Shown piece after piece: positions 8,483-24,746 of a DNA stretch of 64,000 bases. The stretch lies in NCBI RefSeq assembly GCF_001677475.2, contig NZ_CP015229.1. One strand, given 5' to 3'. The stretch comes from Escherichia coli (GTDB lineage: Bacteria; Pseudomonadota; Gammaproteobacteria; Enterobacterales; Enterobacteriaceae). Made by a program: the position numbers and the translations under genes. How positions within the stretch are numbered: position 1 is the first letter of the stretch; each line of letters begins with the position of its first letter. The notes beneath the pieces were generated by a model. The model was not told the origin of the DNA, made no database searches, and worked only from the letters and a program-made list of their open reading frames with translations.

Positions 8483-11400
8483 ATGGACGTCAGTCGCAGA
8501 CAATTTTTTAAAATCTGCGCGGGCGGTATGGCTGGAACAACGGTAGCGGCATTGGGCTTTGCCCCGAAGCAAGCACTGGCTCAGGCGCGAAACTACAAAT
8601 TATTACGCGCTAAAGAGATCCGTAACACCTGCACATACTGTTCCGTAGGTTGCGGGCTATTGATGTATAGCCTGGGTGATGGCGCGAAAAACGCCAGAGA
8701 AGCGATTTATCACATTGAAGGTGACCCGGATCATCCGGTAAGCCGTGGTGCGCTGTGCCCAAAAGGGGCAGGTTTGCTGGATTACGTCAACAGCGAAAAC
8801 CGTCTGCGCTACCCGGAATATCGTGCGCCAGGTTCTGACAAATGGCAGCGCATTAGCTGGGAAGAAGCATTCTCCCGTATTGCGAAGCTGATGAAAGCTG
8901 ACCGTGACGCTAACTTTATTGAAAAGAACGAGCAGGGCGTAACGGTAAACCGTTGGCTTTCTACCGGTATGCTGTGTGCTTCCGGTGCCAGCAACGAAAC
9001 CGGGATGCTGACCCAGAAATTTGCCCGCTCCCTCGGGATGCTGGCGGTAGACAACCAGGCGCGCGTCTGACACGGACCAACGGTAGCAAGTCTTGCTCCA
9101 ACATTTGGTCGCGGTGCGATGACCAACCACTGGGTGGATATCAAAAACGCTAATGTCGTAATGGTGATGGGCGGTAACGCTGCTGAAGCGCATCCCGTCG
9201 GTTTCCGCTGGGCGATGGAAGCGAAAAACAACAACGATGCAACCTTGATCGTTGTCGATCCCCGTTTTACGCGTACCGCTTCTGTGGCGGATATTTACGC
9301 ACCTATTCGTTCCGGTACGGACATTACGTTCCTGTCTGGCGTTTTGCGCTACCTGATCGAAAACAACAAAATCAACGCCGAATACGTTAAGCATTACACC
9401 AACGCCAGCCTGCTGGTGCGTGATGATTTTACTTTCGAAGACGGCCTGTTCAGCGGTTATGACGCTGAAAAACGCCAGTACGATAAGTCGTCCTGGAACT
9501 ATCAGTTCGATGAAAACGGCTATGCGAAACGCGATGACACGCTGACTCATCCGCGCTGTGTGTGGAACCTGCTGAAAGCGCACGTTTCCCGCTACACGCC
9601 AGACGTCGTTGAAAACATCTGCGGTACGCCAAAAGCCGACTTCCTGAAAGTGTGTGAAGTGCTGGCCTCCACCAGCGCACCGGATCGCACAACCACCTTC
9701 CTGTACGCGCTGGGCTGGACGCAGCACACCGTGGGTGCGCAGAACATCCGTACTATGGCGATGATCCAGTTACTGCTCGGTAACATGGGTATGGCCGGTG
9801 GTGGCGTGAACGCATTGCGTGGTCACTCCAATATTCAGGGCCTGACTGACTTAGGCCTGCTCTCTACCAGCCTGCCAGGTTATCTGACGCTGCCGTCAGA
9901 AAAACAGGTTGATTTGCAGTCGTATCTGGAAGCGAACACGCCGAAAGCGACGTTGGCTGATCAGGTGAACTACTGGAGCAACTATCCGAAGTTTTTCGTT
10001 AGCCTGATGAAATCTTTCTACGGCGATGCCGCGCAGAAAGAGAATAACTGGGGTTACGACTGGCTGCCGAAGTGGGACCAGACCTACGACGTCATCAAGT
10101 ATTTCAACATGATGGACGAAGGCAAAGTCACCGGTTATTTCTGCCAGGGCTTTAACCCGGTTGCGTCCTTCCCGGACAAAAACAAAGTGGTGAGCTGCCT
10201 GAGCAAGCTGAAGTACATGGTGGTTATCGATCCGCTGGTGACTGAAACCTCTACCTTCTGGCAGAACCACGGCGAGTCGAACGATGTCGATCCTGCGTCT
10301 ATTCAGACTGAAGTATTCCGTCTGCCTTCGACCTGCTTTGCTGAAGAAGATGGTTCTATCGCTAACTCCGGTCGCTGGTTGCAGTGGCACTGGAAAGGTC
10401 AGGATGCGCCGGGCGAAGCGCGTAACGACGGCGAAATTCTGGCGGGTATCTACCATCATCTGCGCGAGCTGTACCACGCCGAAGGTGGTAAAGGCGTAGA
10501 ACCGCTGATGAAGATGAGCTGGAACTACAAGCAGCCGCACGAACCGCAGTCTGACGAAGTGGCGAAAGAGAATAACGGCTATGCGCTGGAAGATCTCTAT
10601 GATGCTAATGGCGTGCTGATTGCGAAGAAAGGTCAGTTGCTGAGTAGCTTTGCGCATCTGCGTGATGACGGTACAACCGCATCGTCTTGCTGGATCTACA
10701 CCGGTAGCTGGACAGAGCAGGGCAACCAGATGGCTAACCGCGATAACTCCGACCCATCCGGTCTGGGGAATACGCTGGGATGGGCCTGGGCGTGGCCGCT
10801 CAACCGTCGCGTACTCTATAACCGTGCTTCGGCGGATATCAACGGTAAACCGTGGGATCCGAAACGGATGCTGATCCAGTGGAATGGCAGCAAGTGGACG
10901 GGTAACGATATTCCGGACTTCGGCAATGCCGCACCAGGTACGCTAACCGGGCCGTTTATCATGCAACCGGAAGGGATGGGACGCCTGTTTGCCATCAACA
11001 AAATGGCGGAAGGTCCGTTCCCGGAACACTACGAGCCAATTGAAACGCCGCTGGGCACTAACCCGCTGCATCCGAACGTGGTGTCTAACCCGGTGGTTCG
11101 TCTGTATGAACAAGACGCGCTGCGGATGGGTAAAAAAGAGCAGTTCCCGTATGTGGGTACGACCTATCGTCTGACCGAGCACTTCCACACCTGGACCAAG
11201 CACGCATTGCTCAACGCAATCGCCCAGCCGGAACAGTTTGTGGAGATCAGCGAAACGCTGGCGGCGGCGAAAGGCATTGCCAATGGTGACCGTGTCACTG
11301 TCTCCAGCAAGCGTGGCTTTATCCGCGCGGTGGCTGTGGTAACGCGCCGTCTGAAACCGCTGAATGTAAACGGTCAGCAGGTTGAAACGGTGGGTATTCC

Positions 11401-11530
11401 AATCCACTGGGGCTTTGAGGGTGTCGCGCGTAAAGGTTATATCGCTAACACTCTGACGCCAAATGTCGGTGATGCAAACTCGCAAACGCCGGAATATAAA
11501 GCGTTCTTAGTAAACATCGAGAAGGCGTAA
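8483..11530 (+). CDS. fdnG: formate dehydrogenase-N alpha subunit (selenoprotein, Tat signal); in-frame UGA selenocysteine codon at 9068..9070
   Basis: ORF-track entries 8483..9070 and 9119..11530 are in the same frame, separated only by a TGA. The junction reads ...LAVDNQARV-U-HGPTVASLAPTFGRGAMTNHW..., the FdnG selenocysteine context. N-terminal RRQFFK twin-arginine motif. Merged length 1015 aa. Confidence 0.93.
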
Positions 11531-11542
11531 GGGGGCGAACAG

Positions 11543-12427
11543 ATGGCTATGGAAACGCAGGACATTATCAAAAGGTCCGCAACTAACTCCATCACGCCGC
11601 CTTCTCAGGTGCGTGATTACAAAGCAGAAGTCGCGAAACTTATCGACGTTTCCACCTGTATCGGCTGTAAAGCCTGTCAGGTGGCGTGTTCGGAGTGGAA
11701 CGACATCCGTGATGAAGTGGGGCACTGCGTCGGGGTTTATGATAACCCCGCCGATCTGAGCGCCAAGTCCTGGACGGTGATGCGCTTTAGCGAAACCGAA
11801 CAGAACGGCAAACTGGAGTGGCTGATCCGTAAAGATGGCTGTATGCACTGTGAAGATCCGGGCTGCCTGAAGGCGTGCCCGTCTGCTGGTGCAATCATTC
11901 AGTACGCTAACGGGATTGTCGATTTCCAGTCGGAAAACTGCATCGGCTGTGGTTACTGCATTGCCGGGTGTCCGTTTAATATTCCGCGCCTCAACAAAGA
12001 GGATAACCGGGTATATAAATGCACGCTCTGCGTCGATCGCGTCAGCGTCGGCCAGGAACCGGCTTGTGTGAAAACCTGTCCGACCGGGGCTATCCACTTC
12101 GGCACCAAGAAGGAGATGCTGGAGCTGGCGGAACAGCGCGTGGCGAAACTGAAAGCGCGTGGTTACGAACATGCTGGCGTCTACAACCCGGAAGGGGTCG
12201 GTGGTACGCACGTTATGTACGTGCTGCATCACGCCGATCAGCCGGAGCTGTATCATGGTCTGCCGAAAGATCCGAAGATCGATACCTCTGTAAGCCTGTG
12301 GAAAGGCGCGTTGAAACCGCTGGCAGCGGCTGGCTTTATTGCCACTTTTGCCGGGTTGATTTTCCACTACATCGGTATTGGCCCGAATAAGGAAGTGGAC
12401 GATGACGAGGAGGATCATCATGAGTAA
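11543..12427 (+). CDS. fdnH: formate dehydrogenase-N beta subunit (4Fe-4S ferredoxin-type)
   Basis: 294 aa with several CxxCxxCxxxCP clusters ([44 protein letters not shown]...CVKTCP); RBS-spaced start 12 bp after the fdnG stop. Confidence 0.93.
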
Positions 12428-13073
12428 GTCGAAAATGATTGTGCGCACCAAATTTATTGATCGCGCCTGTCACTGGACCGTGGTGATTTGCTTCTTCCTG
12501 GTGGCGCTGTCCGGGATTTCGTTCTTCTTCCCGACGCTGCAATGGCTGACGCAAACCTTCGGTACGCCGCAGATGGGACGCATTTTGCACCCGTTCTTCG
12601 GCATTGCGATTTTCGTCGCGCTGATGTTTATGTTTGTGCGTTTTGTGCATCACAACATCCCGGATAAGAAAGATATTCCGTGGCTGTTGAACATTGTCGA
12701 AGTATTAAAAGGCAATGAGCACAAAGTGGCGGATGTTGGTAAGTACAACGCCGGGCAAAAGATGATGTTCTGGTCGATCATGAGCATGATTTTCGTGCTG
12801 CTGGTGACCGGGGTGATTATCTGGCGTCCGTACTTTGCGCAGTACTTCCCGATGCAGGTTGTTCGCTACAGCCTGCTGATCCACGCGGCTGCCGGTATCA
12901 TCCTGATCCACGCCATCCTGATCCATATGTATATGGCATTTTGGGTGAAAGGATCGATTAAAGGGATGATCGAAGGGAAGGTGAGCCGTCGCTGGGCGAA
13001 GAAACACCATCCGCGCTGGTATCGTGAAATCGAGAAGGCAGAAGCGAAAAAAGAGAGTGAAGAAGGGATATAA
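12420..13073 (+). CDS. fdnI: formate dehydrogenase-N gamma subunit (cytochrome b556)
   Basis: ORF 12378..13073 trimmed to ATG 12420 ([19 protein letters not shown]...), 217 aa. Start overlaps the fdnH stop by 8 nt. Four-helix membrane profile with conserved His residues. Confidence 0.9.
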
Positions 13074-13093
13074 TCTCTTTTGAACTTTAAGCT

Positions 13094-13124
13094 GAAAATG
13101 GCGCTGTAAAAGGCGTCATTTTCA
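13094..13124 (+). terminator. terminator-like hairpin after fdnI
   Basis: aaaatggcgc / gcgtcatttt arms (one G-U pair) around a tgtaaaag loop, about 20 bp after the fdnI stop, followed by a T-rich run. Confidence 0.45.
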
Positions 13125-13127
13125 TAT

Positions 13128-13250
13128 TGTAGACAACGTAGGCTTTGTTCATGCCGGATGCGGCGTGAACGCCTTATCCGGCCTACAAACCCTTCAAATC
13201 CAATAGATTGCAGTGAACTTGTAGACCTGATAAGCGTAGCGCATCAGGCA
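13128..13250. repeat. REP/BIME-type palindromic repeat cluster
   Basis: gccggatgcggcgtgaacgccttatccggcctaca (13153-13187) and tgtagacctgataagcgtagcgcatcaggca (13220-13250) are canonical E. coli REP palindromic units in opposite orientation, lying between convergent fdnI and yddM. Confidence 0.75.
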
Positions 13251-13301
13251 ATGTTGCGTTTGTCATCAGTTTCAAATGGCTCTTTATAAGGTGCCATTTT
13301 T

Positions 13302-13586
13302 TTATTGCGTAACCTGACGGCGTAATCGCGACACATCCACCGTTTTTTCAGCCTCTGCCAGACTCCAGGCGTTTTGCAGATTCAGCCACATTTGCGGCGA
13401 ACTGCCGATCACCACGGAAAGTTTAATTGCCATTTCTGGCGTCAAAGCTGCTTTTCCGGTCAGCAATCGGCTTGCCGTTGAGGGAGCAATTTCCATTGCT
13501 CTGGCAAACTCGCGCAGGCTGACATTAAGTTCGTCCAGTGATTCCTGAATAATGCCCCCCGGACGGGGATGATTGGCCATTTTCAT
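13302..13586 (-). CDS. yddM: XRE/HigA-like helix-turn-helix DNA-binding protein (antitoxin-like)
   Basis: ORF 13302..13664 trimmed to ATG 13586 ([57 protein letters not shown]...), 94 aa; HTH_XRE pattern. Confidence 0.8.
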
Positions 13587-17527: not shown

Positions 17528-17956
17528 ATGACAATCCATAAGAAAGGTCAGGCACACTGGGAAGGCGATATCAAACGCGGGAAGGGAACAGTATCCACCG
17601 AGAGCGGCGTGCTGAACCAACAGCCGTATGGATTTAACACGCGTTTTGAAGGCGAAAAAGGAACCAACCCTGAAGAACTGATTGGCGCAGCGCATGCCGC
17701 ATGTTTCTCAATGGCGCTTTCATTAATGCTGGGGGAAGCGGGATTCACGCCAACATCGATTGATACCACCGCCGATGTGTCGCTGGATAAAGTGGATGCC
17801 GGTTTTGCGATTACGAAAATCGCACTGAAGAGTGAAGTTGCGGTGCCGGGTATTGATGCCTCTACCTTTGACGGCATCATCCAGAAAGCAAAAGCAGGAT
17901 GTCCGGTTTCACAGGTACTGAAAGCGGAAATTACGCTGGTATTAGACGTCAACTAG
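17528..17956 (+). CDS. osmC: osmotically inducible peroxiredoxin OsmC, with its last residues replaced by IS-derived codons
   Basis: MTIHKKGQAHWEGDIKRGKGTV... through ...VLKAEITL, then VLDVN-stop read from the IS end. The expected native C-terminus DYQLKS-stop is found intact at 20355..20375, on the far side of the IS. Confidence 0.85.
   Translation: MTIHKKGQAHWEGDIKRGKGTVSTESGVLNQQPYGFNTRFEGEKGTNPEELIGAAHAACFSMALSLMLGEAGFTPTSIDTTADVSLDKVDAGFAITKIALKSEVAVPGIDASTFDGIIQKAKAGCPVSQVLKAEITLVLDVN
17932..17938. repeat. target-site duplication (TACGCTG), left copy
   Basis: The same 7-mer is found at 20348..20354 directly flanking the other IS end. Confidence 0.55.
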
Positions 17957-18004
17957 TTTTGCCGACTCGCGCCAACTATACTGGCCGCACCCTTCAGGGC
18001 GACA

Positions 18005-18760
18005 TCAAGTCGCGCTTGTTACTGCCTTCGCTGTCTTTTTCCTGTAGCTTTCCCCTTTCAGTTCGAACATATATCCGTGATGGATCAGCCTGTCTGCCGC
18101 AGCCACCGCCATAGTCTCATCCACGAAGATGCTGCCCCACATGCTGAACGGATGGTTACTGGTTATCACCAGGCTCCCACGTTCATAGCGATGCGCTATT
18201 AACTCGAACAGCACACCCGTTTCGGCACTATCGCGTTTGACATAGCCAAGATCATCCACCACTATCACCCGGTAGCGATCCAGTTTCAGTAGCAGCTCAT
18301 TCAGTTTCAACTGAGCTCTGGCTTTACGTAGTTCCTGCAACAGCTCTCCTGCGCTGTAGAACCGGGCCCGGTAGCCCTGACCTACTACGCCATCCACGAT
18401 CGCTGCCGCCAGATGGCTTTTCCCCAACCCGCTGGCTCCGAACAGCAGAACGTTTTCTCCTGCATCAACCCAGTCTGTCGTTTCACAGAGTTGCCGGAAC
18501 TGAGCTCCATTCAGTTCCGGCACCTGACTGAAGTCGTATTCGCTCAGCGTTTTGGCAACTGGCAACCGGGCCTCCTTTTTATAACGACGCAGTTTTTCAC
18601 TCTCGCGCCACAGGAGTTCTTCATTGCATAGCGTCAGAAGATAGCGCGATGGTGTCCAGCCTTCTGCCAGCGCTCGTTTTTCCAGAGCGTGCCATTCAGC
18701 TCCAACTCGTGTCAGGCGTAGTTTACGCAGGCTATGTTCAAGGTGATGGATATTGCTCAC
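18005..18760 (-). CDS. istB: IS21-family helper ATPase IstB
   Basis: 251 aa with Walker A GASGLGKSHLA and Walker B VIVVDDLG; start overlaps the istA stop (ATGA), typical for IS21. Confidence 0.88.
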   Translation of the reverse strand: MSNIHHLEHSLRKLRLTRVGAEWHALEKRALAEGWTPSRYLLTLCNEELLWRESEKLRRYKKEARLPVAKTLSEYDFSQVPELNGAQFRQLCETTDWVDAGENVLLFGASGLGKSHLAAAIVDGVVGQGYRARFYSAGELLQELRKARAQLKLNELLLKLDRYRVIVVDDLGYVKRDSAETGVLFELIAHRYERGSLVITSNHPFSMWGSIFVDETMAVAAADRLIHHGYMFELKGESYRKKTAKAVTSAT

Positions 18761-20256
18761 TGCGAACCTCCCTTGCCACGCAGTAGTTGCTCATAACTGC
18801 TCAGGTTATGCTGTATCACATTGACTACCGGCAACGCCTTTTCTTTTATACCCAGGAAGCGCATCAGCCGGTGCAGATCCACGTTTCCCGGGGTATTCAG
18901 CATCTGCTCCATACCTTTTGCCACGACTGAGATATCGTCGTATCCTGCAGCCAGTTTCAGGGCATGTACCATCAGCCTTCCTGCCATATCGGGCTCCAGA
19001 TGATTACATAAGCGACGCCACAGCCTCCGCCATTCATCGTCCGGCAGGATGTCATTTCTCAGCGTTGCATGGCAGAACGCACCGGGCTTTTTTGCCAGAC
19101 TGTCGATCACATGTCGGAAGTCGATACGACGGGCCCGCGTCTTCCCTTTTTCTGGTCTGACGCGAGGGCAGCTCATGACCTCGCTGCTGCCAACGTAACA
19201 GCTCAGACGATCGTCCCATAACCTGACCCGTAACAGTTGACCTACAAGCCGGGAAGGTACGCTGTAGACGACGTGCTTCACATTGATGGTACTGCTGCGA
19301 CTAACCCTCACAGTCAGCTCATCATAGTCAGCACTGCGACGAAGCGGCAGCGGTTTCAGATGAAGACGTTCTTCCTTGACCAGATCCTGATTGTTACGGT
19401 TGTGCCGCATAACCTGCTGAGTGATGAAGGCCTGATATTCTTCTATGGTGCTGAAGTCGTTACTGCCCCGCAGTATCAGCGCCTGACAGATACGCCTTTT
19501 CAGATGTCCGTGGGCACTTTCAACCGAGCCATTTTCGTGGCCCCGACCGGCATTATTGTGTACGCCCTGCATTCCGTAGTGCTGACAGAGAGTAGCATAA
19601 CGCTCAGTCAGCTCGCGGCGTCCATCTTCGCCCTGTTGTTTCCATGCTGCCCTCAGGCTGTCCGTTTTATGTTCTACCGGCACTCCGCCCAGTTGTCCGA
19701 GGGCTTCCTGCAGGCCTTCAGCCAGAGCAGAGAAGCTCTCACCACCCAGAACAACCCGCATCCAGCTCCAGTGGCTCCATTCCAGACGGAAGTGATACAA
19801 CTTATGCGCCAACAACTTACCGGCGATGGTGACAACTACACCTTTCAGTTCAGTAAAGTCCGACAGGCCTCGCAGGCCGGGCTGATGTTGCTGGCGGAAC
19901 ATGACCTCCTGCTCTGTACCATACTGTAGTTTCCATTCGCGAACCCGCCGTTGCATTGTTCTTCGAAGGCTGTTGGGGTACTGGCCGGGATATTTATCCT
20001 GTAGCATCTCCAGTAGAGTTGTTGGTGTCAGAGCCGGCCTCTCTTTCAACAGAGGAACAAGCATGCTGTCCCACACAGCTTCCAGAGGATCTTTGCGTGT
20101 GCGCCAGTGCCGAACACTGTTTTTTGCCCACTCTCCTTTTTCGATCCGACGACCAGAACGGACTGAGATACCAGCCTTCATGGCCGAGATATGCTGAGTT
20201 ATACCTTTCTTACGCTGAGTCATATAGTAACTGACCTGAGAAGTATTGAGCGTCAC
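18757..20256 (-). CDS. istA: IS21-family transposase IstA
   Basis: 499-aa ORF with N-terminal HTH and a DDE-type integrase core (HTDSLRAAW...GHENGSVESAHGHLKR); an alternative start is the internal Met at MTQRKKG. Confidence 0.85.
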   Translation of the reverse strand: MTLNTSQVSYYMTQRKKGITQHISAMKAGISVRSGRRIEKGEWAKNSVRHWRTRKDPLEAVWDSMLVPLLKERPALTPTTLLEMLQDKYPGQYPNSLRRTMQRRVREWKLQYGTEQEVMFRQQHQPGLRGLSDFTELKGVVVTIAGKLLAHKLYHFRLEWSHWSWMRVVLGGESFSALAEGLQEALGQLGGVPVEHKTDSLRAAWKQQGEDGRRELTERYATLCQHYGMQGVHNNAGRGHENGSVESAHGHLKRRICQALILRGSNDFSTIEEYQAFITQQVMRHNRNNQDLVKEERLHLKPLPLRRSADYDELTVRVSRSSTINVKHVVYSVPSRLVGQLLRVRLWDDRLSCYVGSSEVMSCPRVRPEKGKTRARRIDFRHVIDSLAKKPGAFCHATLRNDILPDDEWRRLWRRLCNHLEPDMAGRLMVHALKLAAGYDDISVVAKGMEQMLNTPGNVDLHRLMRFLGIKEKALPVVNVIQHNLSSYEQLLRGKGGSQ

Positions 20257-20347
20257 GCCATTTCCTGTTGGATCATGTAAATGACACTCAGGTTACAAAA
20301 CCGGCCAGAATAATCGGCGCCAGGCGGACTGAGTTATTGTCGTCTCA

Positions 20348-20354
20348 TACGCTG
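20348..20354. repeat. target-site duplication (TACGCTG), right copy
   Basis: See left copy; followed by the displaced native osmC 3' end gattaccagttgaaatcgtaa (DYQLKS-stop). Confidence 0.55.
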
Positions 20355-22628: not shown

Positions 22629-23552
22629 TTATGGTTTAAGGGCGAAGCGAAGTTGATGTTCCCGACGCTGCTGGATGTACTGCTTCCGCGATTCATCCCA
22701 GCAGTAAAATCCCTGACCGCTACGTACGCCGATGTCTCCACGTTCCACTTTTTCGGCAACTAATGACATCATGTCGCTGCCAGTCGCTAGTTCAGGGAGC
22801 AGATGGCGACAAATATCCTGCACCGTCGAAAGTCCGGTCATGTCGGCGGCCTCCAGCGGGCCGACCATGGCATAACGTCGCCCAAGCGAGGCGCGCATCA
22901 CCTGATCCACCACTTCTGCACTGGCGATGCCGCTTTTTACGATATGCAGGGCTTCACGCAACAGTGCAAATTGCAGACGGTTGCCGACAAATCCTGGCGC
23001 AGCGCGATCCAGCAACACTGCTTCCAGTTGCAGTGACACAAGCAAGTGTTGCAGCCAGTGCAAATGCTTTGGCTCGGTAACGCTGCCGGGGATAATCTCC
23101 ACAAGTGGAATGAAGTGCGGCGGATGCCAGAAATGGGCGATCAGCAGTCGTTGCGGGTAGCGCATCTTCGCGGCCAGATCATCGGGCGGCAGACCGCTGG
23201 TATTGCTGGCGACAATGGCCTCAGGAGAAATAAGCGTTTCAAGCTCGGTATATAATGCGTGTTTTAGTTCAAGTCGCTCCGGGATCGCCTCAATCAGTAG
23301 TTGCGAGTCGGCGATGTCTGCAAGAGAAGTCGTGCCGTGCAGACGTTTAAGCACATTCTCTTTTTCCGGGGCAGTAAACTGTTCGCAGCTAATCAGCTCA
23401 TCAAGAATTCCGCCTGCAACTACGTGGATTTCTGCAATCCGGCTCTGCTCGGTATCGTACAGCCAGATATCATGACCAAAGCGGGCGAAATGAGTGGCAA
23501 TCCCCACGCCCATCAATCCGGCGCCCAGTACCGCAAATTGTTCAGTTTGCAT
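22629..23552 (-). CDS. 3-hydroxyacyl-CoA dehydrogenase-family NAD-dependent dehydrogenase (subfamily with the HPP..IPLVE motif)
   Basis: 307 aa; N-terminal Rossmann fold ([12 protein letters not shown]) and [14 protein letters not shown]. That motif is the variant I associate with family members acting on free 3-hydroxy acids (L-carnitine or L-gulonate 3-dehydrogenase type) rather than classic Hbd. Confidence 0.75.
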
Positions 23553-24746
23553 GGTGTTCTCCTGTGGTTCTTTCCAGTGTCAGCGCCACGCCCTGACCGC
23601 CACCGACGCACAGCGTCGCCAGCCCTTTTTGCGCATTACGTCGCGCCATTTCATAAATGAGAGTGACCAGAATGCGGCAACCGGAAGCGCCAATAGGATG
23701 CCCAAGTGCGATTGCGCCGCCGTTAACATTCACTTTGTCGCAATCCCAGTTCAGTTCGTCGCCAACGGCCAGCGCCTGCGCTGCGAAAGCCTCGTTGGCT
23801 TCAATAAGATCAATATCTTCCAGCGTCCATCCGCAACGCTTAAGACATTCGCGGGAGCGGCGACCGGACCAATGCCCATAAAGGCAGGATCGACGCCAGA
23901 AACGGCATAACCAGCCACCCGAGCCAGCACAGGGAGACCAAGTTCGGCAGCTTTGCTGGCGCGCATTAACATGACTGCGGCGGCACCATCATTGATGGAA
24001 GAAGCATTTCCTGCGGTGACGCTTCCCGCCCCCGGAAGAAAGGCCGGTTTCAGTTGTGCTAGTTTTTCCAGTTGCGTCCCGGAACGTGGTTGTTCGTCGG
24101 TATTTACCCTGCGTGGTGGTTTTTTACCTTGTGGTACGCTGACCGGAGTAATTTCGTCTGCAAAGCGCCCGGCTTCCATTGCGGCAGCGGCTTTTTGCTG
24201 AGAACGTAGCGCGAATGTGTCCTGTCGCTCGCGACTGATGGCATATTTTTGCGCCAGGTTTTCTGCAGTAATGCCCATGTGGTAATCATTGAAAGCGTCC
24301 CATAGTCCGTCATGCACCACGCTGTCTTTCATGCTGGTATGCCCGAGGCGTAAACCTGCCCGTGCGCCATCAATAAAATAGGGCGCGTTACTCATGCTTT
24401 CCTGGCCACCTGCGATAATTATCTGTGCATCACCGCAACGGATCGCCTGTACGGCCTGGTGTACTGCTTTCAGACCGGAACCACATACCAGGTTGATGGT
24501 AACGGCGGGTGTATCGTGGCTTAACCCGGCTTTGAGCGCCGATTGCCGTGCCGGATTTTGTCCGCTTCCGGCAGTCAGGACCTGACCAAAAATCACTTCG
24601 TCGATCTGTTCTGCTGCAAGTGCTGTTTTCTCCAGCAATGAACGGATGGTGGCAGCGCCGAGATCAACCGCAGAAAGTGGGGCGAGAGCGCCATGAAAAC
24701 AGCCAATCGGTGTGCGCGTAGCGGCAACAATAACAACGTCCTGCAT
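23542..24746 (-). pseudogene. acetyl-CoA acetyltransferase (thiolase) gene interrupted by a 1-nt frameshift
   Basis: The N-terminal ORF (23751..24746; MQDVVIVAATRTPIG...GIGPV) and the C-terminal ORF (23542..23733; ...[25 protein letters not shown]...) are both thiolase but in different frames. Manual translation shows the thiolase frame resumes ([29 protein letters not shown]...) just after GIGPV, so the shift lies near plus-strand 23850-23862. Confidence 0.75.

Follow-up and report, generated by a model that had tools for sequence, protein, structure and literature searches.

Selenocysteine codon and SECIS_3 hairpin in the formate dehydrogenase-N gene fdnG of an Escherichia coli strain

Results

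The fdnGHI locus

The window analyzed in this study, that is, the whole 64-kb stretch of Escherichia coli DNA, contains the genes of formate dehydrogenase-N (Fdh-N), fdnGHI, with yddG upstream and yddM/adhP downstream, as in E. coli. The features of the operon and of the internal UGA codon of its first gene are the following.

8483 to 11530, plus strand: fdnG, catalytic (alpha) subunit of formate dehydrogenase-N, 1015 residues and a stop, with selenocysteine codon 196 (reading frame, TIGR01553, 1kqf_A, RefSeq)
8483 to 8581, plus strand: presumed Tat signal peptide region, MDVSRRQFFK...ALA, placed by the RRQFFK motif in the translation of FdnG
9068 to 9070, plus strand: UGA codon 196, almost certainly decoded as selenocysteine (alignment with X196 of 1kqf_A; literature)
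11543 to 12427, plus strand: fdnH, iron-sulfur (beta) subunit of formate dehydrogenase-N (NCBIfam TIGR01582, 482 bits, cut-off 335; position fits the E. coli annotation)
12420 to 13073, plus strand: fdnI, cytochrome b (gamma) subunit of formate dehydrogenase-N (NCBIfam NF007558, 487 bits, cut-off 339; position fits the E. coli annotation)

Translation of 8483-11530 gives a single frame of 1016 codons, in which the only stops are codon 196 (TGA 9068-9070) and the terminal codon. The ORF lister reports this frame as two pieces, 8483..9070 (195 aa) and 9119..11530 (803 aa), and the junction across the TGA reads ...QARV*HGPTVASLAPTFGRGAM... The claim of an earlier, sequence-only reading that the ORF track breaks fdnG at this TGA, with both pieces in one frame, is thus borne out by the translation. 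The same reading had named the gene fdnG and the UGA a selenocysteine codon, and three lines of evidence agree with it. The product scores 1617 bits against the NCBIfam equivalog TIGR01553 (cut-off 814). It aligns over residues 1-1015 with PDB 1kqf_A, the major subunit of Fdh-N (2385 bits), which carries a non-standard residue, X, at position 196; several substitutions separate the product from the 1KQF sequence, and the PDB matches that follow 1kqf_A are formate dehydrogenase alpha subunits named 'selenocysteine-containing'. Finally, fdnG stands in RefSeq records as one 3048-nt CDS, free of a pseudogene flag.

The paralog fdoG, encoding formate dehydrogenase-O, lies at another locus, and synteny identifies the gene in the window as the fdnG copy. 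For the gamma subunit encoded in the window, the Fdh-N model gives 487 bits and the model of the Fdh-O-type cytochrome b556 gives 268 bits. The RRQFFK stretch at the N-terminus of FdnG is one that we take, from what is established for Fdh-N, to be the twin-arginine (Tat) signal. The active site of Fdh-N is periplasmic (PMC3160892).

Expression of fdnG is activated by FNR. An FNR-box-like sequence, TTGATTTCGCGCAA, was found upstream of the gene at 8405-8418, with 51 such matches in the whole window against 42 expected, which is not above chance. Scanning 8200-13400 for promoter and terminator consensus sequences yielded no sigma-70-like promoter upstream of fdnG; the counts were at or below shuffle expectation, and the scan is uninformative. 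Gene decay is seen elsewhere in the window: there is an IS21-like insertion, and a thiolase gene is disrupted. The interrupted thiolase gene (23541-24746) was considered as a second recoding site and rejected: its frame is disrupted and it has no SECIS match, which makes it a pseudogene.

Selenocysteine codon or stop

The internal TGA of fdnG is documented in E. coli. Berg et al. 1991 (PMID 1834669, cited in PMC3160892) state in their title that an opal UGA in fdnG encodes selenocysteine, and PMC11903333 counts three E. coli genes in which an internal TGA stands for selenocysteine, fdnG being one of them. Among homologs, the V-UGA-HGPTV context was retrieved from 104 loci, this context being itself part of the search pattern.

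If the TGA were a true stop, fdnG would be a pseudogene or two genes (195 and 803 aa), as might follow, for instance, from the loss of the selenocysteine machinery. Such a reading could appeal to the mechanical ORF call, which splits fdnG, to the decay elsewhere in the window and to a window in which no sel genes are visible: the 64 kb contain no tRNA genes, hence no selC, and the annotations listed for the corresponding, syntenic regions of E. coli include no sel gene. At the level of the species, however, the machinery is nearly universal, as out of 5426 complete E. coli genomes 5425 carry selAB, 5425 selD and 5424 selC. The same holds for the gene, which was found in 5425/5426 of these genomes, with the same TGA in essentially all E. 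coli and an annotation as one CDS. The best nucleotide identity of fdnG among them is 98.3%, and regions across the window have best identities of 97.9-98.6% throughout, which places the genome of the window outside these 5426.

A true stop is also at odds with the divergence of the gene. Compared with E. coli 536, fdnG differs at 56 nucleotides, of which 52 are third positions, but at only 3 amino acids over its whole length, and this excess of mostly third-position changes indicates that purifying selection acts on the entire reading frame. Moreover, ATG 9119, with which the second ORF piece starts, is the internal Met codon of a conserved GRGAM motif, and the SECIS element described below is identical to that of E. 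coli and of other genera. A true stop at codon 196 is therefore very improbable.

The automated mis-annotation of which the sequence-only reading had warned applies to naive ORF callers, which do split fdnG, but not to the RefSeq/NCBI pipeline, which gives one CDS.

The SECIS hairpin

The sequence directly downstream of the UGA matches a selenocysteine insertion element over its full length, with the following parts.

9065 to 9123, plus strand: Rfam RF01989 (SECIS_3), matched along all 59 positions of the model (1-59) with 84.3 bits (gathering score 63)
9071 to 9113, plus strand: SECIS hairpin, composed of a lower helix, an internal loop or bulges, and an upper helix (Rfam consensus structure and ViennaRNA MFE structure, with the same upper helix)
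9082 to 9099, plus strand: upper stem-loop at nt 15-32, with the U of the UGA as nt 1, presumably the minihelix bound by SelB (MFE and Rfam structures)

The SECIS_3 match has E = 1.4e-18 for the whole window and is the sole Rfam match on either strand of the 64 kb. E. coli-type SECIS elements are defined by an 11-nt spacing and by the nucleotides that contact SelB, namely U17 as a bulge and G23 and U24 within the apical loop (PMC8659212). All of these are found in the window: the upper stem-loop begins 11 nt past the UGA (9071-9081), U17 (9084) is unpaired between G16 and A18, and G23 and U24 of the loop are at 9090 and 9091. The claim of a downstream SECIS hairpin made in the sequence-only reading stands, on the SECIS_3 match and the covariation given below, though the span it assigned, 9068-9118, is slightly loose against a match of 9065-9123 and a hairpin of 9071-9113; the 41 nt that it quoted, cacggaccaacggtagcaagtcttgctccaacatttggtcg, are 9071-9111.

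The element does not reach the threshold of the fdhF-type family, Rfam RF01988 SECIS_2, against which it scores 28.8 bits (gathering score 70), whereas true fdhF-type loci score 87.6 bits. The same division was seen in other genomes, where fdnG/fdoG-type loci match SECIS_3 and fdhF-type loci match SECIS_2. The element in the window is expected to work like the fdhF SECIS, yet its family is SECIS_3.

Folding energy proved to be a poor guide. For 9071-9120, the region suggested for folding in the sequence-only reading, a hairpin is indeed predicted, with an MFE of -13.8 kcal/mol, but at z = -0.90 against shuffles this is weak when taken alone. The z-scores for the 59 nt of 9065-9123 and for a 46-nt segment are -0.77 and -1.37, respectively, and the 18-nt upper hairpin (9082-9099) has -4.5 kcal/mol and z = -2.06. 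The experimentally established fdhF-type SECIS reaches only z = -0.18, no better than the fdnG element. Folding energy was therefore rejected as a discriminating criterion, as neither the fdnG region nor the fdhF-type SECIS can be distinguished from shuffles by it; for the same reason, the lack of a stable predicted hairpin would not be a valid argument against a SECIS at this site. The case for the element is carried by the covariance model, covariation and synonymous-site conservation.

Conservation of the element among homologs

A homolog scan with a pattern that left the hairpin unconstrained yielded 69 distinct 59-mers. When the Rfam structure is placed on them, 90.2% of the cells are paired, versus 27-50% in slid controls, and the covariation score was reached by none of 500 shuffles. 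The two helices contribute differently. In the upper helix, 97.7% of the cells are paired and both-sided (compensatory) changes occur at four of the seven pairs. In the lower helix, 84.4% are paired (16% of cells unpaired) and compensatory changes are absent, so that this part is supported by conservation only. Covariation inside a coding region is partly entangled with amino acid changes. The defining nucleotides are strongly retained: U17 and U24 (columns T20 and T27) are invariant and G23 (column G26) is present in 67 of the 69 distinct sequences. U24 occupies a synonymous third position, and it is nevertheless unchanged in 69/69.

Synonymous codons were compared in fdnG/fdoG genes of Enterobacterales, 19 in all. 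Their identity is 0.95 over the first 16 codons past the UGA versus 0.555 over 350 codons, and the profile has one peak only, of approximately 50-70 nt from the UGA onward. Codons +2 to +12 are invariant in the 19 genes, which represent many genera, and yet the codons used there are infrequent elsewhere in the gene (GGA 4%, AGT 4%, CTT 1%, ACA 8%). Synonymous conservation reaches codon +21 (9133), past the hairpin. A longer functional RNA 3' of the hairpin was considered on this account and rejected, because at +13 to +21 the gene uses its most frequent codons, and these positions vary in the wider set of homologs.

These data bear on the possibility that the UGA is read by a near-cognate tRNA (Trp or Cys) independently of SelB, the downstream conservation being due to the protein or to codon usage only. 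Two observations lend it some color, namely a folding energy no better than that of shuffles and the common codons at +13 to +21, where codon bias explains part of the conservation. Neither accounts for the invariant rare codons at +2 to +12, for a synonymous U24 fixed in every distinct homolog, for upper-helix pairing kept by compensatory changes, or for a covariance-model score far over the curated threshold. Further, Fdh-N is a selenoprotein, and its activity in E. coli depends on selC, being lost in a selC mutant (PMC3160892). We regard near-cognate read-through as having next to no probability. Equally negligible is the proposal that the conserved nucleotides serve some other overlapping element, such as an antisense or small RNA or the 356-aa minus-strand ORF (8657..9727) that does span the site, as the one conservation peak begins at the UGA and covers about 50-70 nt rather than 1 kb, the plus-strand structure and its defining nucleotides fit the SECIS model, and no other Rfam family is matched on either strand.

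The 59-nt SECIS region is the same as in E. coli 536 and in 17 loci of other Enterobacterales genera, with loci of Providencia, Photorhabdus, Yersinia, Citrobacter, Enterobacter, and Klebsiella identical to it base for base. Within Enterobacterales all 46-59 nt are invariant, and this applies also to the lower stem and to the unpaired CCAACAUUU stretch. Genomes with multiple formate dehydrogenases hold two 59-mers near to that of the window: 59/59 and 58/59 matching positions in Citrobacter werkmanii (L019 and L021, respectively) and 59/59 at each of two loci in Enterobacter cloacae (L070 and L071), these loci being taken together as fdnG or fdoG.

Such invariance of the whole element would not seem to be needed for a SelB-binding minihelix alone. 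For this reason we considered that the fdnG/fdoG SECIS might make additional sequence-specific contacts, for instance with the ribosome, in competition with release factor 2 (RF2), or with a regulator, or that gene conversion homogenizes the paralogs. Either is unlikely, though less so than the alternatives to selenocysteine decoding discussed above, and simple strong purifying selection on a composite of RNA and protein constraint could equally account for the observation.

Discussion

The closest known counterpart of the gene is fdnG of E. coli K-12 (PDB 1KQF/1KQG), with which it shares its identity, the fdnGHI operon, the neighbors, and the UGA at codon 196. The divergence from known E. coli fdnG is at the strain level only, and the recoding signal shows no difference, the 59 nt having been compared with those of E. 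coli 536. As a member of SECIS_3 (RF01989, the fdnG/fdoG type), the element is typical, full-length, and in agreement with the predicted helices of the family; SECIS_3 is also matched by homologs from Pseudomonas, Rhodospirillales, an Actinomycetota MAG, Citrobacter, and E. albertii.

The SECIS of E. coli fdhF, the experimentally dissected target of SelB, shares with the window element the position of the hairpin directly 3' of the UGA, the start of the minihelix at nt 15, the bulged U17, and G23/U24 in the loop. The minihelix itself differs, being 18 nt long in fdnG, where there is either one more pair (A22-U26) or a loop of 5 nt, and 17 nt long in fdhF, with a GGUC loop. The host gene and the sequence differ too, as is seen from the encoded peptides, HGPTVASLAPTFGRGAM in the fdnG of the window and HGPSVAGLHQSVGNGAM in fdhF.

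These observations leave little doubt that the ribosome recodes the UGA at codon 196 of fdnG as selenocysteine. For the steps involved, we extrapolate from the established E. coli system, by analogy with which selenocysteine insertion in this organism, binding by SelB, and the occurrence of selA, selB, selC and selD in its genome are presumed. The mRNA directly 3' of the UGA would fold into the SECIS hairpin (9071-9113), whose apical minihelix (9082-9099), with the bulged U17 and the loop G23/U24, is expected to be bound by the elongation factor SelB carrying Sec-tRNA(Sec). SelB would then bring Sec-tRNA(Sec) to the UGA in the A site, competing with release factor 2. The selenocysteine so inserted would coordinate the molybdenum of the bis-MGD active site in FdnGHI, a periplasmic enzyme inducible by nitrate.

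The selenocysteine codon and the SECIS of fdnG are real, ordinary, and already known, and they make no addition to the biology of selenocysteine recoding. Recoding in fdnG is said to have been established in 1991, and the residue is reportedly visible in the crystal structure of 2002. With respect to method, MFE z-scores perform poorly in detecting bacterial SECIS elements, and the comparative numbers show what an RNA signal inside a coding region looks like, namely a sharp peak of synonymous conservation on rare codons. The value for annotation is direct: 8483-9070 and 9119-11530 belong in a single fdnG CDS, annotated with a translation exception for selenocysteine at 9068-9070, and fdnG should not be called a pseudogene.

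Reading frame and identity of fdnG

The gene and its internal stop codon are as follows.

8483-11530, +, fdnG, formate dehydrogenase-N alpha subunit
9068-9070, +, in-frame TGA at codon 196

A mechanical ORF list breaks fdnG into two pieces, 8483..9070 (195 aa) and 9119..11530 (803 aa). Translated as one frame, 8483-11530 yields 1016 codons whose only stops are codon 196 and the final codon, which bears out the sequence-only reading that the TGA splits ORFs sharing a frame; the peptide across the junction is QARV*HGPTVASLAPTFGRGAM (* denotes TGA). The same reading warned of mis-annotation as two genes. This holds for the mechanical list but not for RefSeq, where E. coli has a single CDS labeled "fdnG: formate dehydrogenase-N subunit alpha", and the NCBI annotation pipeline treats the selenocysteine codon correctly.

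With X at position 196, FdnG reaches 1617 bits with the NCBIfam equivalog model TIGR01553, whose cut-off is 814, and the two following ORFs are FdnH (TIGR01582) and FdnI (NF007558). In E. coli, fdnG is likewise followed by fdnH and fdnI, with yddG and yddM/adhP on the flanks. Residues 1-1015 align with the nitrate-inducible formate dehydrogenase major subunit (PDB 1kqf_A), which likewise carries X, a non-standard residue, at position 196, matching the UGA codon; the PDB matches ranking next are Desulfovibrio-type "selenocysteine-containing" formate dehydrogenase alpha subunits.

The fdnG region is present in 5425 of 5426 complete E. coli genomes (best identity 98.3%, megablast). Relative to E. 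coli 536, fdnG differs at 56 nucleotides, of which 52 are third codon positions, and at three amino acids; so few amino acid changes, with mostly third-position differences, indicate purifying selection on fdnG taken as a whole, both sides of the UGA pooled. The best identity of the whole window (1-64000) to any of the 5426 genomes is only 97.9-98.6%, so its source is a close relative or a divergent lineage from outside this collection. Positions 8300-11600 match 10,840 places in the E. coli collection, and eight of these are on plasmids instead of chromosomes.

Upstream of the gene, 65 nt before the start codon, lies an FNR-box-like sequence, TTGATTTCGCGCAA (8405-8418, +), with two mismatches to TTGATNNNNATCAA. 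This is presumably where an FNR site would be expected from fdnG regulation. The window-wide count of such matches is not above chance, and a scan around 8405-8418, upstream of fdnG, gave no sigma-70 consensus promoter.

The SECIS element

At the gathering threshold, an Rfam scan of all 64 kb gave one match, the fdnG/fdoG-type family SECIS_3 (RF01989) at 9065-9123 (+), aligned over the full model length with 84.3 bits (gathering 63, E = 1.4e-18); no other Rfam family exceeded its threshold anywhere in the window. The fdhF-type model SECIS_2 gives the element 28.8 bits, below its threshold of 70. The ViennaRNA prediction of the upper helix agrees with the Rfam consensus.

Predicted fold of the upper stem-loop, 9082-9099 (U of the UGA, 9068, is nucleotide 1)
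G15-G16 with C31-C32 and A18-A22 with U26-U30, upper-helix base pairs
9084, +, bulged U17
9090-9092, +, apical loop G23-U24-C25

In PMC8659212, the upper stem-loop of the E. coli SECIS is placed 11 nt beyond the UGA; U17 bulges out, the apical loop carries G23 and U24, and SelB contacts U17 and G23. The window element shares the 11-nt gap, the bulged U17 and the loop G23/U24. Thus a hairpin of the SelB-binding type is predicted within the 40-50 nt after the UGA, where the sequence-only reading had placed it, quoting 41 nt (9071-9111).

Folding energies were compared with dinucleotide shuffles.

Folding z-scores
9065-9123 (59 nt), z = -0.77
9068-9113 (46 nt), z = -1.37
9071-9120 (span proposed for folding by the sequence-only reading), z = -0.90
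9082-9099 (18-nt minihelix), z = -2.06
fdhF-type SECIS of E. albertii, z = -0.18

Folding energy by itself does not set the SECIS region above chance; the support is comparative. Since the z-scores are weak even for an fdhF-type SECIS, the lack of a stable hairpin, offered earlier as a refutation, is a poor test for SECIS elements of this kind.

Conservation and covariation among homologues

Synonymous conservation was measured in 19 Enterobacterales fdnG/fdoG genes as the fraction of same-amino-acid codon pairs sharing the codon. It is 0.555 over 350 codons and rises to 0.95 across the 16 codons that follow the UGA, the sole peak of the profile, and per-codon counts are near-invariant from -1 to +21. 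The hairpin codons +2 to +12 are rare elsewhere in the gene (GGA 4%, AGT 4%, CTT 1%, ACA 8%, GCA 14%) yet conserved, and codons +13 to +21 are its commonest; the RNA-level constraint therefore maps to 9068-9113. In Enterobacterales, synonymous conservation runs about 20 nt past the 3' end of the hairpin (9114-9133, +; codons +15 to +21). RNA constraint on this tail was dropped as an explanation, as these common codons vary in more distant homologues and codon bias is sufficient.

Homologues were collected from GTDB (one genome per species) with the pattern GCNCGNGTNTGACAYGGNCC, in which A-R-V-UGA-H-G-P is the sole constrained context and the hairpin is free to vary. At least 120 loci matched; the matches listed comprise 104 of FDH-N/O type (V*HGPTV...), ten of fdhF type (V*HGPSV...) and six chance hits. 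The 59-mer of the window recurs unchanged in at least 17 loci, among the matches listed in Providencia, Photorhabdus, Yersinia, Citrobacter, Enterobacter, Klebsiella, Superficieibacter and E. albertii, with two such loci in several of these genomes.

On the 69 distinct 59-mers among the matches listed, the Rfam structure is 90.2% paired, versus 27-50% with the 3' partners slid by 1-3 columns, and none of 500 shuffles reached its covariation score. Pairing is 97.7% in the upper helix, where four of seven pairs have both-side changes (for instance, from A-U to C-G or G-C), and 84.4% in the lower helix, where no compensatory changes were found among these 59-mers. U17 and U24, the latter a synonymous third codon position, are invariant, and G23 occurs in 67 of the 69. 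Among sampled loci, those of fdnG/fdoG type, including Pseudomonas, a Rhodospirillales MAG and an Actinomycetota MAG, match SECIS_3, and those of fdhF type match SECIS_2.

Selenocysteine machinery and published genetics

No tRNA gene was found in the 64-kb window, and no sel genes are among the annotated features listed for syntenic E. coli regions (including narZ, narU, LRR protein, porin, yddG, fdnGHI, yddM, adhP, maeA, sra, bdm, osmC, the 3-hydroxybutyrate/CoA-transferase cluster, ddpA, dosP, pqqL, yddA/B, ydeM/N/P/Q and a fimbrial usher). The K-12 annotation has selB with selA, selD and selC at known loci, and DNA of selB/selA, selD and selC occurs in 5425, 5425 and 5424 of the 5426 genomes, respectively. 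In the genome of the window itself, the intact SECIS and the apparent purifying selection on fdnG argue indirectly for this machinery.

Selenocysteine is present in all three E. coli formate dehydrogenases, and a selC mutant loses Fdh-N/O activity (PMC3160892). The three E. coli genes with an internal selenocysteine TGA are fdhF, fdoG and fdnG (PMC11903333), and the same three selenopolypeptides are given in PMC4009273. PMC3160892 cites Berg et al. 1991 (PMID 1834669) for "evidence that opal (UGA) encodes selenocysteine" in fdnGHI, and also the Fdh-N crystal structure.

A real stop or a pseudogene is contradicted by the pattern of conservation, the score of the covariance model and these genetics, and we consider it very improbable. 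The same evidence contradicts read-through of the UGA without SelB and an overlapping element of another kind, for example the antisense ORF 8657..9727; the chance of either is smaller still.

Other features of the region

17940-20350, IS21-like element of the ISEc10 family, directly after osmC (17528-17956)
18005-18760, -, istB of this element
18757-20256, -, istA of this element
17939-17987 and 20302-20350, its imperfect terminal inverted repeats
23541-24746, -, disrupted thiolase (acetyl-CoA C-acetyltransferase) gene
3266-4519 and 4582-5847, -, tandem leucine-rich-repeat ORFs (417 and 421 aa)

E. coli TB06051 lacks the ISEc10-family element at the corresponding site; other E. coli chromosomes and plasmids carry copies with 99.9% identity, and 898 of 5426 genomes have a match. 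Positions 1-25000 match 28 places in the median E. coli genome. The element is excluded as their source, being in 898 genomes only, and the extra places are likely paralogues (narZ/narG, porins) or short repeats.

The thiolase gene belongs to an accessory 3-hydroxybutyrate/CoA-transferase cluster; its frame is lost at about codon 300, and the ORF ends at 23751. A selenocysteine site was ruled out, as there is no SECIS match there; in TB06051 the orthologue carries an internal stop and is annotated as a pseudogene. The leucine-rich-repeat pair has narU on one side and an ompC-like porin gene (6011-7111) on the other. The second ORF is weakly similar to SlrP/internalin LRR regions, and TB06051 has one intact ORF only.

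Function of the fdnG element

The whole element is base-for-base invariant across Enterobacterales genera, lower stem and unpaired nucleotides included, which would seem to exceed what the minihelix model alone requires; an additional function is nevertheless unlikely. Frame, gene identity, Rfam match and comparative evidence agree with the sequence-only proposal: 9068-9070 and the downstream element are the canonical, already known fdnG selenocysteine codon and SECIS. Based on established E. coli knowledge, SelB·GTP·Sec-tRNA(Sec) would bind the apical minihelix, the SelB-borne Sec-tRNA(Sec) would decode UGA196 in competition with RF2, and Sec196 would coordinate Mo in the bis-MGD site of the periplasmic Fdh-N.
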